Assembly (NCBI GenBank): GCA_963813715.1
Contig: CAWFAK010000012.1
Coordinates: forward strand, 96,001 to 160,000
DNA length: 64,000 nucleotides
DNA from: an uncultured Planctomycetaceae bacterium
Lineage (GTDB): Bacteria > Planctomycetota > Planctomycetia > Planctomycetales > Planctomycetaceae
Direction of reading: 5' to 3'
In this document: in pieces, positions 21,535 to 31,563 of the stretch
Position numbering within the stretch: position 1 is the stretch's first letter
Layout of the letters: the number at the start of each line of letters is the position of its first letter
Position numbers and translations under genes: made by a program
Notes under the pieces: generated by a model
Told to the model about the DNA's origin: nothing
What the model saw: only the letters and a program-made list of their open reading frames with translations
Database searches by the model: none

Positions 21535-22484
21535 GTGAAAGTCCGTCTTCTCGGCACGGCCGCCGGCGGTGGCTTCCCGCAGTGGAATTGTGCCTGCCCC
21601 AATTGTGATGGACTGCGCCAAGGGACGCTCCGCGCGCGTCCGCGTCGCGAGCTGTGCGTTGCGATCTCGGGGAACGACAGCGACTGGTTCCTGATCAACG
21701 CTCCGCCCGACCTGCACGCGCAAATCGCCTCATTCCCGCCCTTGGCCCCGCGCGGCGACGTGCGATCGACTTCGATCGCCGGCGTGCTGCTCACCAGTGC
21801 CGATCTCGACAATGTGCTCGGCCTGATGGTGCTGCGGGAAGGGCCGCCGGTGCACGTGTATGCGACGCCGGGCGTGCAGCGGCGCTGGAAGTCGGCGGAC
21901 TCGCGTTCTCGCAGCTCTTGGCGAATTACGCCCCGCCGGTGTGGCACGAACCCGCCACGTCGCGCTCGCCGCTGCTCCCGCAAAGCGGCCGGACGAGCGG
22001 ACTGGAGTACCAGGTCTTCGAGGTCGACTCGCACCAACCGCGCTACCTGGGCTCTGAGGATTCCAGCGTGCGCGAGGTCGTCGCCGATCGCAGTGGTTAT
22101 GAGTTTTGGGTCACCGCCAGCGGCAAGCGGCTGGTTGTGCTGACCGGAGTGTTGTCTCTCACTCCCGACGTGCACACGCCGACGGTCGACCATCGCGAGC
22201 GGATTCGCGATTGCGATCTCTTGCTGCTCGACGGTTCGTTCTGGAGCGAAGACGAGCTGCGGACGAAAACTTACAGCGGGCGAACGGCGTCGCAAATGGG
22301 CCACCTTCGCGTGGGAGGCCCGGGCGGCAGCCTCGACTTGATCAAAGACCTGAAACCCCGCCGCGCGATTTACATCCACATCAACAATACAAACCCGATG
22401 TTGAACGAGGACTCAGCCGAACACAAAGCGGTGCGCGCGGCGGGCGTCGAAGTCGGCTATGATGGGCTGGAAATCGAGTTGTGA
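21535..22484 (+). CDS. pqqB: PQQ biosynthesis protein PqqB (frameshift near 21885)
   Basis: LGTAAGGGFPQWNCACPNC, DGSFWSEDE, MGH, IHINNTNP. Confidence 0.92.
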
Positions 22485-22520
22485 TTGCGCTCACGGCAAG
22501 CAGCGATGGGGCAAAGGGCG

Positions 22521-23249
22521 ATGGCCGACGACAACGGCGAACTCTGGGACGAGGCGACGTTCACGGGGCGGCTGCGAGCCGTCGGCGAGAAAAGCTATCA
22601 CGATCGCCATCCCTTCCATCGGCTGATGAATGAAGGGCGGCTCAGTCCGCCGCAAATTCGCTGCTGGGTCGCCAACCGCTTTCATTATCAGCGGCACCTG
22701 CCAATGAAGGACGGGGCGATCATCGCGAACTGCCCCGAGCCCGACGTACGTCGCGCCTGGCGGCAACGCCTCGTGGACCAGGACGGAGCCGCGGCCGGCG
22801 AAGGCGGCATCGAGGCCTGGCTGCGGCTGGCAGAAGCGACCGGATTGACGCGCGAGGAAACGTGGGACGCGCGGCACGTCGTTGCTGGTGTGCGCGATGC
22901 GGTGGCCGATTACGTCGAACTGGCGCGGACGAGTCCTTGGCCGGTGGCGGTGGCGTCATCGCTCACGGAGCTCTTCGCCCCCGATTTGATGAAGACTCGC
23001 GCGGCTGCGTTCCGAGAGCACTACACGTGGATTCCCGCCTGGGGCCTGGCCTACTTCGAATCGCGGATCACGATCGCCCGCAAAGACTCCGAATTCGGCC
23101 TGGCCACCACGCTCGCCTACTGCAACACGCCGGATTTGCAACGGGGCGCGGTCGCCGCTCTGGCCGAAAAGTGCCGGATCCTCTGGACGCTCTTGGACGC
23201 CATCGCCGAGGCTTGCCACGCTGCCGCCGCGGAACCCATCGATGTCTAG
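22521..23249 (+). CDS. pqqC: Pyrroloquinoline-quinone synthase PqqC
   Basis: YHDRHPFH, WVANRFHYQ, GGIEAWLRL, SSLTELFAP. Confidence 0.92.
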   Translation: MADDNGELWDEATFTGRLRAVGEKSYHDRHPFHRLMNEGRLSPPQIRCWVANRFHYQRHLPMKDGAIIANCPEPDVRRAWRQRLVDQDGAAAGEGGIEAWLRLAEATGLTREETWDARHVVAGVRDAVADYVELARTSPWPVAVASSLTELFAPDLMKTRAAAFREHYTWIPAWGLAYFESRITIARKDSEFGLATTLAYCNTPDLQRGAVAALAEKCRILWTLLDAIAEACHAAAAEPIDV

Positions 23250-24804
23250 CCGCGGCGACGATCGACCGGCGCTGGCCGGCAAAACACGCGTCCGCCGCGA
23301 TCCGGTCACGGGCGAACCGCTGCTGCTCTACCCGGAGGGACTGTTGCGACTCAACCGCTCGGGTGCCGCCATCGTCGCCTTGTGCGATGGGCGGCGGAGC
23401 GTGCCGCAGATCATCGCCGAACTCTCTGAGAAGTTTCGGCCGGGTTCCCGCGAAATCGGCGCCGAAATAGGCCCCGATGAAATCACCGACGACGTCGGCA
23501 CGTTCCTCGAGGAGTTGGATGCCAAGGGATTACTCGCCTGGAACGTCGAGCCGGCGACCGACCTCGACGGCCTGCCCGATCTTGTGTCGCGGGCGGTCGC
23601 GCCCGACCCTCGGTCGCAGACCGACGCGCCCCACAAGATCGCTGGCGATCGCCCGCTCGGGTTGCTCGCCGAGTTGACCTATCGTTGTCCGCTCGGTTGC
23701 CCGTATTGCTCGAATCCGACCAGCCTGCGTCACGACGGGGCCGAATTGACGACGGACGAATGGCAACGCGTGATCGACGAGGCGGCCGAACTGGGCGTGC
23801 TGCACGTCCACTTTTCCGGCGGCGAGCCCCTGTTGCATCCGGGATTAGTCGAGCTCGTCGCCACGGCGCGGGCGGCCGGCCTCTATACGAACCTGCTGAC
23901 GAGCGGGATTCCGTTCTCTCGCACCGCGGCGGAATCGCTGCGAGCAGCCGGCCTCGACCACGTGCAGCTCAGTCTGCAGTCCGACGAAGCGCCTCTGGCC
24001 GACACAATCGCCGGCCGCCGTTCGCACGCGGACAAGCTCGCTGCCGCCCGACTGATTCGCGAGCTGGGCTGGCCACTGACGCTGAACGTCGTGCTGCATC
24101 GCCCGAATGTCGCTCGAATTCCGCAACTGGTTGCCCTGGCGGAAGAACTCGACGCCGACCGCTTGGAGCTGGCGAACGTGCAGTTTTACGGCTGGGCCCA
24201 TCGCAATCGAGACGCGCTGTTGCCGAGCATTGCTGAACTGCGCGAGGCGGCCGCCTGTGTCGCAGAAGCGCGGACGAAACTGCGAGGACGATTGCGCATC
24301 GATTACGTGCTGCCCGACGCGCTGGCCGATCGGCCCAAACCGTGCATGGAAGGCTGGGGGCGTCGCTACCTCACCGTCAATCCGCAGGGAGACGTGCTCC
24401 CCTGCCCGACCGCGTCGTGCATCGAGTCGCTGCGGTTCGACAATGTCCGCCAGCATTCGCTCGGCTGGATTTGGCGTGAGTCGCCGGCGTTCAACCACTT
24501 TCGCGGCACGGCCTGGATGCCCGAGCCGTGTCGGAGTTGCGACTGGCGGCACACCGATTTCGGCGGCTGCCGCTGCCAGGCCGCCCTGCTGACGGGCGAC
24601 GCCGCCAACACCGATCCGGCCTGCGCGCTCTCCCCGCACCGCGCCCGGTTGATCGAGGCGTTTCAGCTCACCAGGGACGCGCCCGCCGCCGACCCGCTCG
24701 CCACCAACACTCCGGCGAATACGCCGTTCGAATACCGCCGCAATCCTCGCAACGGTTTCGTGGCCGCCGTCTCGATCGCCGAACGCGGCCCCTCTCGCGA
24801 CTAG
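23242..24804 (+). CDS. pqqE: PqqD-PqqE fusion (peptide chaperone plus radical SAM/SPASM cyclase)
   Basis: N-terminal LLLYPEGLLRLNRSGAAIVALCDG (PqqD); LLAELTYRCPLGCPYCSNP, KPCMEGWG, DFGGCRCQA (PqqE), in one frame. Confidence 0.9.
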   Translation: MSSRGDDRPALAGKTRVRRDPVTGEPLLLYPEGLLRLNRSGAAIVALCDGRRSVPQIIAELSEKFRPGSREIGAEIGPDEITDDVGTFLEELDAKGLLAWNVEPATDLDGLPDLVSRAVAPDPRSQTDAPHKIAGDRPLGLLAELTYRCPLGCPYCSNPTSLRHDGAELTTDEWQRVIDEAAELGVLHVHFSGGEPLLHPGLVELVATARAAGLYTNLLTSGIPFSRTAAESLRAAGLDHVQLSLQSDEAPLADTIAGRRSHADKLAAARLIRELGWPLTLNVVLHRPNVARIPQLVALAEELDADRLELANVQFYGWAHRNRDALLPSIAELREAAACVAEARTKLRGRLRIDYVLPDALADRPKPCMEGWGRRYLTVNPQGDVLPCPTASCIESLRFDNVRQHSLGWIWRESPAFNHFRGTAWMPEPCRSCDWRHTDFGGCRCQAALLTGDAANTDPACALSPHRARLIEAFQLTRDAPAADPLATNTPANTPFEYRRNPRNGFVAAVSIAERGPSRD

Positions 24805-26020: not shown

Positions 26021-26651
26021 GGCGTTCTCCTGCGCGTGGAACATCGAATTGAAGTTCTCAGCGGGCTTTTACCATTGGGGGTCCCCGCGGTCCAGCCTTG
26101 CTCAGCCTGCGCGTCGCGCCCAGCAATGCGGCCGGCAACCACAGGTCGAACAGAAAAACTGATCTTGGCCGAATTGCGATTTTATGGCTGAATGAAAAGA
26201 AGCGGTTGCGCGCGAGCGCATCTTTGCGCGCGGTGGACGTCCGTGTGCGTCCTGGCGAAGGACCTGACCGGAGCGGTGCGCGGTGGGACCAGTTTCGACT
26301 CACGGGTGCTCGCAGCAATCGAGGGCAACGAATTCGTCGTTAGTTTCCCAGATCGAACCGCCTGTGCGACGGAAAAACATCAGCGAACGGAAGTTAGGTC
26401 GCGGCGGCCGGTCAGAACACAGGGAGCGGAATACGTATTTGGACGGTGGGTCCAGTTGTCCCGGCGGGTCAACCTGAAGTGGACCCGGCGTGACGGGTCT
26501 CTCACATTTAATATAAGGGGGGCGCGGAAAAGTGGTCCCACCGCGCGGCGACCAGGGTTAGGAAAATTAGTGGTCATTCGTAGTGTGCCGGCGGCCCGTA
26601 TGCGGGGTTGGTCACATCCTATGAACACCGTCACACCGGACGGACGCGAAT

Positions 26652-26683
26652 AAAAAAGTCCCTGGCCGGTTGGGCCAGGGACT
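26652..26683 (-). terminator. Intrinsic terminator of the Cys-rich protein gene
   Basis: 11-bp stem agtccctggcc/ggccagggact followed by a U-run on the minus strand. Confidence 0.8.
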
Positions 26684-26718
26684 CGTGGTAAAAACTCGCG
26701 TTCGCGAAGTTGTATTTC

Positions 26719-27192
26719 TCAGCAGGTGCCGCAGCAGCAGGGCGTGTTGTTGAAGCAGACGTAGCAGCAGCAACCCTGCTCGAGGCAGGTGTGCAGCGTC
26801 GCGCAGCAGGACTGCAGAATCGCAGAGCACGCCTTATCGCCGCTGGTGCAGGTGATCGTGCAGCCGTCCTTCGTGTTTTCACACTTGCAGATGCCGCAGG
26901 TCAGGTTGCACTGGCAGACGCAGAGGCCGTTAAGCGTGCAGCAGCAGGAGCACAGGCCGCCGGCCAGGGCGTCGCACAGGTGGTGCAGCGTGTGGCAGGC
27001 GACGTCGTCCGGGCAGTGGCAGTGAATCTTGAAGCCGCCGGTGCACTTTTCCACCTTCATCGTGCAGCGGGGGACGACGCACCACCCTGCGGCGGGGCCG
27101 CCGGCCGACAGGCCGGCCGGCGAGGGCGAAACGGCCGAAGCACCGGCCGCACCGAAGAACAATCCCCGCTCCAAAACCATCGTACTGGACAT
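26719..27192 (-). CDS. Cysteine-rich protein (31 Cys in 157 aa) with a two-fold internal repeat
   Basis: AAAGGAG RBS, GC-rich third codon positions, own promoter and terminator. Confidence 0.85.
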   Translation of the reverse strand: MSSTMVLERGLFFGAAGASAVSPSPAGLSAGGPAAGWCVVPRCTMKVEKCTGGFKIHCHCPDDVACHTLHHLCDALAGGLCSCCCTLNGLCVCQCNLTCGICKCENTKDGCTITCTSGDKACSAILQSCCATLHTCLEQGCCCYVCFNNTPCCCGTC

Positions 27193-27384
27193 GGACTCGA
27201 CTCCTTTCAAGAGCCGGCCGCACGTGGGCTGCGTCTCTGGGACGCAGCTCGCCAGCCGGCAGGGAACGTCGACGCGCTCCGGCCGACGCTCGGTCGGCAG
27301 CGCCGAGGCCCGACAGTGCCAGCCCCGAAAGCGGGGGCGGCAAAAAACTCCTTTTAGTCACCCCAACGATGGTAGACCGTAGGA

Positions 27385-27413
27385 CTTATAGCTTTTGAAA
27401 CGGCGACTTGCAA
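27385..27413 (-). promoter_or_regulatory. Sigma-70-like promoter of the Cys-rich protein gene
   Basis: TTGCAA-17 nt-TATAAG on the minus strand. Confidence 0.6.
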
Positions 27414-27488
27414 TTGAGTTGGCCGTAACTCTGGCCGCGGCAACGCCAAGACTGCGCCACGACTTGGGCCGCGGACGAATCAATCCTT

Positions 27489-27563
27489 ATGGACTGCTCC
27501 CTCGCGAACGCATGCTCATGTCGCTGTCCCCAGAACATCTCCGGGGCTCTCGCGGCGCGGTAA
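27489..27563 (+). CDS. Putative Cys-rich attenuator leader peptide MDCSLANACSCRCPQNISGALAAR
   Basis: ATG 27489 to TAA 27563; Cys codons at positions 3, 9, 11, 13; overlaps the antiterminator strand. Confidence 0.5.
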   Translation: MDCSLANACSCRCPQNISGALAAR

Positions 27564-27623
27564 CGCTTCGCACTCGACCGCAATGAACATCGAGAGCCCG
27601 GACGCCGTCCGCGGCTCTTTTTT
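27528..27623 (+). promoter_or_regulatory. Candidate transcription attenuator (antiterminator plus intrinsic terminator)
   Basis: gggctctcg (27544-27552) is complementary to cgagagccc (27591-27599), which overlaps the terminator agagcc-cggac-gcc-gtccg-c-ggctct-ttttt. Confidence 0.65.
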
Positions 27624-27695
27624 CGTCTCGACGCGCGGACACGGCCGCTCGCACGATCGGCCGGTCCGCCGCCCTTGGGCCGCAGGAGTCATTCG

Positions 27696-27953
27696 ATGAC
27701 GACCAATCGCATCACCGCCTATCTGTCGGCCGACGCAGACACCACGCTCGCGGAGAACGCCATGCCGCAGAACTCGCCCAGTTTCCACAACCCGCTCGCG
27801 CCGCCGGCCAATTTCGCACCGGTGCCCGAAGCGCTACTGCAGAACGTCTCGCCGCCGCAGCTCGCCTGGCAGCAAGAGCTGTATCGGGCGGCCTACCAGT
27901 CGGCGCTGGCGGCGATCGCGGCCGAAGCAACGCGACGCGCGCAGCGGAACTGA
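27696..27953 (+). CDS. Small hypothetical protein (85 aa, no Cys, WQQELYRAAYQSA helix)
   Basis: AGGAG RBS upstream of ATG 27696; coding-like codon usage. Confidence 0.7.
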   Translation: MTTNRITAYLSADADTTLAENAMPQNSPSFHNPLAPPANFAPVPEALLQNVSPPQLAWQQELYRAAYQSALAAIAAEATRRAQRN

Positions 27954-28015
27954 ACGGAGCTGACGGGTCAGCCATCGCAGTGCGGGGCGCGAATTCAAAC
28001 CGAGTCGAGCCGCGC

Positions 28016-31000
28016 TCAGAACCCGTGCACCAACCACCACACGCTGGCCAGCAGGGCCGCGGCTGCCGCCACGCCTCCCGAGATGATCGCCAGGCGCTTT
28101 TTCGATTTGCCGACGATCGGCGCGGCGGGCGGTTCTCCCACCCGCTCGGTGCCGGAGACTTCGACGGCCGGCGCCAACTCCAGAATCAGCGAGTCTTCCC
28201 GCTCGAACTTGCGGCGGAGATCTTCGATCCGCTGCAACTGCTGGTTGATGGCGTCGACCGACGCTTCCTTGACGGCCCCTTTGTCCGCGGCGGCGTTGGC
28301 GTTCGCGGCGGACTCGATCGCCTTGGGCTTGCGGCTCGCGCGGACAGCGGCGTCGGCCGCCAGCACGTACGACGGATGTTCCCGCGACGCGGTGTCAGCC
28401 AAATCGAAGTATTTCGCCTGGCCCGCGTCGAGTCGCAAGACCATGAACAGGCTCGCGCTGAAGCGGTCCCAGTGCGAGGCGCTGGCTTTCGCGGCGCCCT
28501 CGCCGGCCGTGAGCTTCTGCGGCATCGCATAGATCTCGACAAATGAGCGGTCTTGAGCGGCTGATGCGTTGGGATCGGGTCGCGCGGCCGGCTGACCGGC
28601 GGCCGTTCGAGCGGCCAAGGCCGAAGGTTGCCAGGTGCGGCACTCGCGCGCGATGAACTCGACGCCCGGTCCGCCCAACTGCCGATCGAGCACAGAGAGT
28701 TCGGTCAGGAGGTCGGACAACTTCGACGACGAGGCCGAGCCCGGTTCGACGATCATCCGCAGCCGCGGACCCTCGACCCGCGGTCCGGCATCGGCAGCGG
28801 CCGCGGTTTTTCCAGTCCGCGCTCCTGCGAGTCCCCCCGCCCGGCTGATCAGCGAAAAGACTTCCGCCAGCTCTTCTCGCTCGATTTTGAGCCGCGTCCG
28901 CTCCTCGTGCAGGCGGCCGAGCAGGACCTGCAGGTCGGCGACGGTTTCCTTGGGCGTTTGCGTGAGGCTCCAGGTGTGGAGCGAGTCCTCGCCCGGCTGC
29001 AGCCGCTTCCGCTCGTCGCGGAGCTGCTTGAGCGCCTTGTGGATGTCGGCCTCTTTCTTGGCGACCTGGGCCCGCTCTTCCATGTACGCGACCCGCGACG
29101 CCTCGAACTTTTCATTCTGCTGCCGCAGCTCCGAGCGGGCCGCTTCCAGCTCTTCGCGGGCGATTTTGAGCAGCCGCTGGTCGGCCTCGTATTGGGTCCG
29201 CAGCTCGGCGTATTTCTTCTTGTCGCGCTCGACGTCCTTTGCCTGCTCGCGGGCCTTGGTTCGGTCGTGCTCGAGGTGCTGGCGGGCCGACTCGACGGCC
29301 GCCTTCTGGTCGCGGATGTCGTCGTGCGCCGCCTGCAATTCGTCCCGCTCGGCCTGGATGCGGGCCGACTCCGACTGGACGTGGGCGATCTGGACCTTGA
29401 ACTCGGCCAGCTCTTTGTCGAGTTGCCGCCGCCGCTCGTCAACGTCTCGCCGCAGCTTCTCGGTTTCTGCCCGCTCCTTCGCGGAGGCCGCCTCGCGGGT
29501 CGTCACGCTTTCGACCGCGTGGTCGAGCTGCTTTTGCCGCTCGGTCAGCGACGACTCGCGCGTGTCAAACTCCCGCAGACGGCTTTGCAGTTGCTGCTCG
29601 CGGAGAGCGAAGTCGGCTCGTGTCGCCTCGGCTTTGGCGACTTCGGCCCGGAACTTCTCCACCTCCGTCTTGAGCGTTTCCCGCTCGTCGGCCAGCGACT
29701 GCTCGGCAGTCGACAGCTCGTCGCGACGGGCCCGGAGTTCGTTCTGCTGCGTGCGGAGCTGCTGCTTCTCTTGCTTGAGTTTTTCCGCCGCCTCGCGCAG
29801 GTCGATGGCCGCCCGCTCGGCCTGCTCGGCTTTGACCACGAGCGTCGTCCGCTCTTCGTCGAGCCGCGTCTGCAGGGCACGCAGGTGCCCTTCCCGTTCA
29901 GCCAACTCCTTCGACCGATCGGTCAACTGCTCGGTATCGGCTTGGAGCCTTTCGAGTTGGCCAGCCAGCCGCTCGCGCTCGTCTTCGAGGGCGTCCTTCT
30001 GGCGATCAAGCTCGGCCTGCACGCTCGCGGCCTGCGCCGCCTTTTGGCCGAGCGACTCGCGCTCCTTTTCGATGTTCCCCTTCTCGCCCTGCAGCCGTTC
30101 GATCTCGGCCAGCAATTTTTCGCGTTCGGCGGAGACGCGGGCCCGCTCCTCCTCGATCGATTCCTTTTGCCGCTGCAGGTTGGCCTCGTCCGACTCGCTT
30201 TGGGCGGCCCGATGGCCGAGCGATTCGCGCTCTTTTTCGAGCTGCGCCTTCTCGCTTTGCAGCCGCTCGATCTCCGCCAAGAAGTTCGAGCGTTCTTCGC
30301 CCAGACGGGCCCGTTCGGCCTCGAGCTGCGCCTGCGTTTGCTCCAAGTCCTTTTGCCGCTGCTCCACCCGCGCCGCGGCTTCGGCGGCCGCTTCTGCCGC
30401 CTGGGCATCGTTGATGCCCGCGCGCGGTCGAGGTCGAGTTCGGCGGCTTGGCGGTCCAGATCGGCCTGCTGCGTTTCGAGTTCGCTCTGCTTCGTCTTCA
30501 GCGCCTCGCGATCGGCTTCGAGCGCCTGCCGCTCTTCCTCGAGTTTCGCTTCGAAGGCGCACAGGTCGTCCTGCCGGGCCCGCAACAGCTCGGCCGCCTC
30601 GCGCAGCTTGAACGTGGCTGCCAGGTCGTCGGACGGGGTGACCTGCGGCTTTGCCGGCTCGGCCGTTTTCGCAGGCTCGTCGCCGCCAGCAGCCGCGGGC
30701 TTCGCGGGCTTCTTCTTGGCACCGGCCGCACCCTTACGAAACAGTGCGCCCAGGATGCCGGTCTCTGCCGGGTTTACTTTCTCGCCGATGGCCGGGAACT
30801 TGCCCAGATGCATCCGGTGAAGCATCTCCCAGTCGAGGCGGGCCGCGCGGGGAACATCGTCCCGAATGGCAGCCGCCGCATCGTAAGCGATGGCAGCCGC
30901 GTCGGCGACTTTATCGCCCACGGCGTTGAGATCCTCACCGTCGGCGACCGAGCGTACGGCGGAGGCCGCGTCGATCGCCGCATAGGCCGCGTTGGCAGCG

Positions 31001-31293
31001 TAGGCAGCGGACGAGTTCCCGTTCTCCTCGCCGCTGACCAGGATCATCGCCTTGACGGCGGCTTCCTCGGCCTGGGCGAAGAGGTCGGCGTCGGGCTCTT
31101 CGTCGGCCGCGACTTGTTCGGCGATGCGGATCGCGTTTTCGATCGCCTCGACGCATGCGGCCGACTCGGGATTCGCGGGGTCGGGTGCATATTCGGATTG
31201 CACCCGCCGGGCGCAGCGGGCCGCATAAGCGACCAGCGCTCGCAAAGGAAGTTGTTTGAGATCGGTGGCGGTCTCGACGGCGGGCGAACCCAT
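28016..31293 (-). CDS. Large coiled-coil protein with an Ala-rich N-terminal domain and C-terminal TM anchor (frameshift near 30425)
   Basis: ORFs 29923..31371 and 28016..30562; long E/K/R/Q/L heptads; terminal LAIISGGVAAAAALLASVWWLVHGF. Confidence 0.8.
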
Positions 31294-31563
31294 CCTCATC
31301 CTCGACTTCGGCAAGCAAACGGGAGGCTGCGCACTCCCGGCGCAGCCGATGCGGTTGGCCCGTCCCCGCACGACAAACCTAGCTCACATCCGCCAATTCG
31401 CCCGACCGGCGAGCCAGCCGCGTCCGCGAAATCTGGACGTCGTAACAGTAGGAGCGGCCGGCAGACGCGGCGCCAGCCGTCAGCACCGTTGAAATCGGCA
31501 CAGCTGCGCCGAAGCGTTCGCGAGGCGGCCACTGCACGAGCAAGGCCCACCGGGCGACGCGGG

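Follow-up and report, generated by a model that had tools for sequence, protein, structure and literature searches.

Transcription attenuators of the classical kind are represented by the leader regions trpL, hisL, leuL, thrL and pheL of Escherichia coli and Salmonella. For cysteine, Brewer et al. (2021, PMC8632094) predict uORFC-8-2, which lies before cysS in Rhodobacterales; its upstream open reading frame (uORF) carries Cys codons in tandem, an intrinsic terminator is present, and read-through is proposed to occur on shortage of Cys-tRNA. Cys leaders without terminators have been predicted in Actinobacteria (PMC1262725), and in mycobacteria such leaders were shown to act on translation (10.1101/834739; PMC13236596). 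Ms5788A and the other members of the 'Cys ribulon' are polycysteine leaderless small ORFs (sORFs) with a proven cysteine response and several loci per genome (Canestrari et al., 10.1101/834739). The same authors report that the studied mycobacterial locus hides the downstream ribosome-binding site and that no conserved terminators were seen.

A 64,000-nucleotide stretch of DNA from an uncultured Planctomycetaceae bacterium (the window) contains a leader ORF with clustered Cys codons, followed by an intrinsic terminator and a gene for an 85-aa protein (Table 1). Very probably, this arrangement is a ribosome-mediated transcription attenuator responsive to charged cysteine tRNA, and the 85-aa protein under its control likely has a part in the response of planctomycetes to sulfur shortage. 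The locus shares with the trpL/hisL class a short leader ORF bearing a cluster of codons for one amino acid, an antiterminator in the 3' half of the leader and an intrinsic terminator, and a weak 1:2 hairpin is predicted in the window. It differs from that class in that Cys would be sensed, no Shine-Dalgarno sequence precedes the leader, and the target is a small protein rather than a biosynthetic operon. Compared with uORFC-8-2, also a prediction, the design is the same in its Cys uORF, intrinsic terminator and proposed read-through, whereas the phylum, the target (cysS there, an 85-aa protein here) and the dominant codon (UGC there, UGU here) are different (PMC8632094). The mycobacterial sORFs resemble the present leader as Cys-codon sensor ORFs without a Shine-Dalgarno sequence, but here an intrinsic terminator is present, the leader pairs with the terminator arm, and one locus was found per genome (10.1101/834739). 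The trp/his-type geometry recognised in the initial annotation is supported; the nearest precedent in print is the predicted Rhodobacterales cysS leader (PMC8632094) rather than the mycobacterial elements, which act on translation. No description of a planctomycete Cys attenuator with a terminator was found in the open-access literature, in line with what the initial annotation had supposed. The mechanism would be classical, and the lineage, the likely leaderless start and the target appear new. Cys-codon attenuation with an intrinsic terminator would thereby extend to planctomycetes. The usual attenuator targets are enzymes, transporters and synthetases, and a small protein of likely regulatory function would be an unusual one.

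Table 1. Features of the attenuator locus and its divergent neighbour (window coordinates)
Feature	Position	Strand	Details
Divergent partner gene	26719..27192	-	157 aa, 31 Cys (30 TGC, 1 TGT), no known family
Sigma70-like promoter of divergent gene, TTGCAA-17-TATAAG	27385..27413	-	from sequence
Conserved upstream element CTGC ... GACGAAT, putative promoter	27452..27480	+	from leader comparison
Leader ORF, 24 codons, Cys codons 3/9/11/13	27489..27563	+	from sequence; likely leaderless or nearly so
Weak 1:2 hairpin	27526..27547	+	starts in last Cys codon; -7.4 kcal/mol
Antiterminator 5' strand	27540..27552	+	starts 15 nt past first base of last Cys codon
Small hairpin around leader stop codon	27553..27573	+	enclosed by antiterminator
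Predicted intrinsic terminator	27591..27623	+	stem 27593-27618, six U's; 5' arm 27591-27602 is antiterminator 3' strand
Shine-Dalgarno (27682-27688) and regulated gene (27696-27953)	27682..27953	+	85 aa, no Cys

The uORF of the initial annotation, with its 24 codons and four Cys positions, is present as described; 27489-27563 translates to MDCSLANACSCRCPQNISGALAAR, with Cys3 and Cys9 encoded by TGC and Cys11 and Cys13 by TGT. Its Cys pattern is C-x-C-x-C with no consecutive Cys, which do occur in 12 of the 16 other leaders. When the sequence was resampled 5000 times under a Markov model, a uORF with CC or CxC at such a distance from a terminator arose by chance in 2.4% of cases, and one with at least four Cys in 0.34%. 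No Rfam family matched the window, the region even at an E-value of 10, or the leaders of 20 related loci. Two other reading frames were considered and rejected. The overlapping Cys-free uORF 27512..27586, named in the initial annotation as the frame that might prove to be the translated one, is unconserved in length, with 23-29 codons in three of nine loci and at least 54 codons or an open end in the other six, the latter being so even in a 96%-identical relative (overall range 23 to >70 codons). The ORF at 27583-27699 was ruled out, its ATG being missing in the nearest relative. The RNA data were assembled contigs from 8 of the 22 RNA runs listed. Only one of the eight, a run that covers everything and may be DNA, reaches the leader, and a single RNA contig differs from the window at 27518 without altering the peptide in the Cys frame. 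These contigs showed no 3' end at the terminator, a result of no weight given that gaps in their coverage carry no information. The window's 83%-complete genome yielded no 'Cys ribulon': a Cys-cluster ORF accompanied 4 of its 843 terminator-like sites, with the present locus as the sole convincing case, nor was a Cys leader found before cysK there.

The terminator proposed at 27593-27623, about 70 nt before the gene, was confirmed, with a predicted stem energy of -17.6 kcal/mol for 27593-27618, six U's to 27623 and a spacing of 72 nt to the ATG at 27696. A leader segment complementary to the terminator had likewise been placed correctly; the pairing, between 27540-27552 and 27591-27602, comprises 12 bp with one bulged G rather than the 9 bp first described. 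The duplex has a predicted energy of -22.3 kcal/mol, a value equalled by 1 of 300 shuffles, and the whole unit with the enclosed stop-codon hairpin reaches -24.8. A weak 1:2 hairpin lies where it had been proposed, but it is not dominant everywhere; ribosome-free RNA favours the antiterminator at equilibrium in 7 of 17 leaders, so that the 1:2 hairpin is no general feature. The folding energy of the region is no better than that of shuffles (z -1.38) and terminator-like sites within 26500-29000 are not enriched (3 vs 2.3 expected). Given that both measures are unremarkable when taken alone, the case rests on comparison between loci.

The switch was modelled by equilibrium folding, with the ribosome represented as a mask of all RNA up to 12 nt beyond the A-site codon. 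Two alternative folds are predicted in this way. With the ribosome on Cys11 or Cys13, the modelled probability of the antiterminator in the window's leader was 0.68 or 0.71, respectively, and with the ribosome at the stop codon or absent, that of the terminator was 1.00 and that of the antiterminator 0.00. The model thereby reproduces the behaviour proposed in the initial annotation, in which a stall on the Cys codons frees the antiterminator and a ribosome at the stop leads to termination, although the preference for the terminator with the ribosome at the stop is partly built into the model because more RNA is masked. Among the 17 leaders, the modelled antiterminator exceeded 0.5 from at least one Cys stall in 12 and did not in five (L025, L058, L078, L101 and L106, with L058 modelled with a shortened terminator). 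Nine of the antiterminator duplexes beat their own shuffles at p 0.05 and eight do not. All 17 leaders have an antiterminator helix 9-24 nt past the Cys cluster and a predicted terminator, the U run of which lies about 40-190 nt upstream of the gene start. The helices are mostly invariant within the genus, with the lengths of the G-run and C-run varying together; no clean two-sided substitution was found in them within the genus, and a register shift distorted the column-wise covariation count.

The upstream regions of homologues, in which the initial annotation had suggested looking for conserved Cys uORFs and terminators, retain both features in 11 of the first 16 loci; two are cut by contig ends and three (L007, L009 and L016) are without both. 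Over 72 target-gene loci, 17 have the uORF and the terminator, 49 have neither, three have a terminator only and three a uORF only. Same-genome duplicates, the near copies L010/L012, the truncated L013/L014/L016 and the mis-parsed L071/L108 were left out of this count. As the loci are relatives, the Fisher p was not taken at face value, and the 17/49 split may reflect few events. Eight of the 17 attenuated loci fall outside the window's genus (L036, L043, L058, L063, L078, L101, L105 and L106). Leaders from distant genera are unrelated in sequence and have in common only the start codon, a run of CC to CCCC and a terminator-competing helix. The leader peptide varies freely over its first half, and neither its sequence nor its Cys spacing is conserved across genera. 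Insertions within the uORF measure +6 or +12 nt and keep the frame, whereas those outside the leader are of any length, and the nucleotides around the antiterminator are near invariant within the genus. L022 and L023/L024 have no terminator and no intact Cys uORF. In a tree of the divergently encoded Cys-rich protein, constructed without L063, L078 and L106, they are nested in the attenuated clade and are therefore read as joint losses of uORF and terminator. In L016 the whole leader is gone, and the deletion joins the upstream element, which is kept, to the gene. The sources of all 17 leaders are records labelled Planctomycetaceae or assigned to the same family, or closely related metagenome sequences; in Pirellulales, Gemmataceae and other families the gene pair is kept without the leader. 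One attenuator locus was found per genome. A different Cys-cluster ORF (CC-x-x-C-x-C) is present in L104, 61 nt before the start of the small gene and overlapping it out of frame, with no terminator; this is a possible translation-level variant, seen once.

In all 17 leaders, the end of the CGA in the conserved upstream element lies 10-13 nt upstream of the start codon, against a background of 9.7%, and no Shine-Dalgarno sequence was found before the leader ORF in any of the 17. Because the element is kept where the leader is lost, it is read as part of a promoter and the leader as likely leaderless or nearly so. The spaced form CTGC-N17-GACGAAT showed no enrichment at such spacing in the genome. 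In L058, TTGACA-17-TATACT lies 6 nt upstream of the leader ATG, and a sigma54-type spacing was seen by eye in four distant leaders and is absent here. On the opposite strand, RNA contigs over the divergent gene end at 27341-27382 in five of the eight runs, near its predicted start site, which hints weakly at that site. In families that lack the attenuator leader (L151, L163-L168 and L157-L159), a sigma70-like promoter precedes the small gene and has CCGA/TCGA immediately upstream of its -10 box, as noted by eye; this motif is perhaps part of an operator.

We infer the start site, the translation of the leader, the direction of the response and the role of the small protein. Transcription would start at or just upstream of the leader ATG. 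With ample cysteine, the ribosome would reach the leader stop and cover the antiterminator strand, and the terminator would form. On shortage of Cys-tRNA, it would pause at TGT codons 11 and 13 and leave 27540-27552 free to capture the 5' arm of the terminator, with polymerase then reading into 27696. The choice of Cys codons bears on this scheme. Across the 17 leaders, 43 of 66 Cys codons are TGT (23 TGC), as are 27 of 34 in 10 picked lineages. The TGT share of Cys codons in the genome is 17.5%; it amounts to 1 of 31 in the divergent Cys-rich gene, and six related Cys-rich genes have 2-8 of about 30 each, with 3 of 12 in one partly read gene. TGT is decoded by wobble from the single Cys tRNA. 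Such a preference, combined with wobble decoding, is expected from selection for a sensitive pause and not from selection on the peptide.

This last point weighs on the alternative that the attenuator senses metal or oxidation, with the nascent Cys-rich peptide itself stalling the ribosome. CxC and CC motifs bind metals, and the neighbouring gene, with its 31 Cys, would then fit a metal-binding role. The alternative is nonetheless improbable, given that the peptide sequence and the Cys spacing are unconserved across genera, that the rare codon TGT has been selected, which is relevant to decoding and not to the peptide, and that sulfur genes, not metal pumps, are found nearby. The poor conservation of the peptide argues equally against the Cys peptide being the product in its own right, either as a thiol peptide or with the transcript as a small RNA, where the terminator would be fixed and the 85-aa gene expressed through leakage or from a promoter of its own. 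Although the terminator is the favoured equilibrium fold in several leaders and 49 of 72 loci have the target gene without the leader, this second alternative is very unlikely, since an antiterminator helix follows the Cys cluster at close range in 17 of 17 leaders and the leader separates the upstream element from the gene, two parts that the L016 deletion unites. That a protein or ligand binding the RNA throws the switch, as an antiterminator protein or a riboswitch would, with the ORF incidental, agrees with the near-invariant nucleotides around the antiterminator within the genus but is hardly credible, considering the lack of an Rfam match, the restriction of features common across genera to the start codon, the Cys codons and the helix geometry, and the frame-keeping insertions.

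An attenuator that senses charged cysteine tRNA, the preferred reading, labels its target, so that induction under cysteine shortage is predicted for the small-protein family (53 of 301 genomes). The small protein is not a cysteine-pathway enzyme. It has the motifs M-x-x-N-R-I, P-x-x-F-x-x-x-P and Q-x-x-L-Y-R-x-A-Y, and no match among Pfam, NCBIfam, PDB or Atlas families was found. In its structural model (pTM 0.42), a poorly ordered N-terminal half is followed by a single long C-terminal helix; this resembles a binding partner more than an enzyme, and a binding partner is the most likely role. The gene is genuine, with 24 close homologues, and 8 of the 11 other genomes in the genus have it. 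The family as a whole has 22 Cys in 4160 residues, with 40 of 55 members free of Cys. The absence of Cys from the target had been taken as fitting induction under cysteine limitation; this argument is weak, as Cys makes up 1.2% of residues in the genome and simple arithmetic at that rate leaves about one third of 85-aa proteins without any. Class-wide, with a profile trained on neighbours of the Cys-rich gene, the small gene was found in 53 of 301 genomes and the Cys-rich gene in 66, and 52 of the 53 have both. In 20 further loci picked from 57 matches, the small gene directly precedes an Rrf2 gene in five and a cysteine dioxygenase-family gene in one, and elsewhere it is also placed before CBS genes. 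For the one Rrf2 protein scored, CymR was the best among named NCBIfam models, but under the cut-off. As a raw count, sulfur or cysteine genes account for 12 of 93 scanned neighbours (156 listed).

The divergently encoded protein consists of about 20% Cys and is a candidate cysteine or sulfur reserve. Its structural model shows a confident fold from residue 34 on, with two similar beta-beta-alpha-beta-beta halves; Foldseek gave no match at an E-value of 0.001, and the best VIA hit had a Z of 5.6, with nothing clear. The gene has the same position in the 12 loci where it was matched. Relatives are encoded on 222 genome stretches, and in the best 80 of these 222 a divergent small gene was found at 61 loci with an iterated profile; 3 of the 19 misses had less than 600 bases of flank. 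The Cys-rich gene is present in 30 of 398 genomes of the order. Twenty of the 30 lie outside the genus; the small gene adjoins it in 15 of them, and 8 of these 15 have a Cys leader and terminator. The protein is widespread and present in soil RNA data sets, and contigs covered the window's gene at least partly in all eight RNA runs.

The predicted induction of the small protein makes a sulfur-reserve role of its 20%-Cys partner directly testable. It is conceivable, though doubtful, that the small protein acts on one of two partners, the Cys-rich reserve protein or an Rrf2 repressor resembling CymR. More broadly, and equally tentatively, the attenuator could serve a sulfur-reserve system of planctomycetes as its cysteine sensor, with shortage inducing a mostly unfolded, trans-acting small protein. 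This protein might mark its 20%-Cys neighbour for sulfur release, block its synthesis via a tandem-hairpin leader RNA, or tune a CymR-like Rrf2 repressor. If true, one leader peptide would control a whole sulfur regulon through a single small protein, and the locus would open the first way into the study of a bacterial protein that stores cysteine.

The tandem hairpin concerned, GCYGAC-YYG(loop)CRR-GAGG, occurs twice in succession in 5' leaders of the Cys-rich gene at 25 of 80 loci under a strict pattern (for example, L036:2388-2456 and L044:2818-2889). Its loops are variable, it has no match in Rfam, and it is a candidate protein-binding RNA element. The version in the window (27270-27345, minus strand) is diverged and degenerate, and the RNA model built for the element misses it. 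This genome yielded no copy under that model, and within the genus only the leader of the Cys-rich gene and chance matches were recovered, so that binding of the small protein to tandem-hairpin RNA is without support in this genus.

Several further features of the genome and the window were observed. Downstream of the Cys-rich gene, 26480-26550 is matched by many unrelated RNA contigs, which suggests a repeated palindromic element. At G000:C9:21570-23196 (L132), a gene for a sulfate-binding protein follows an Rrf2 gene, as in most genomes of the genus that were read, and a palindrome, TAATCAC...GTCGTGATTA, is conserved between the two genes; the sulfate-binding protein gene is in two frames here, possibly through an assembly error. 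Genes for PQQ synthesis lie at 21535-24804 of the window, comprising pqqC and a fused pqqD-pqqE, as assigned with Pfam, together with a gene that we take to be pqqB-like and that is apparently split over two frames, possibly again an assembly error. On the minus strand, 28016-31371 encodes a long coiled-coil protein that has a membrane anchor at its C-terminus. Its gene is divided here between two frames that overlap, whereas in L012 it is a single frame of at least 983 codons.
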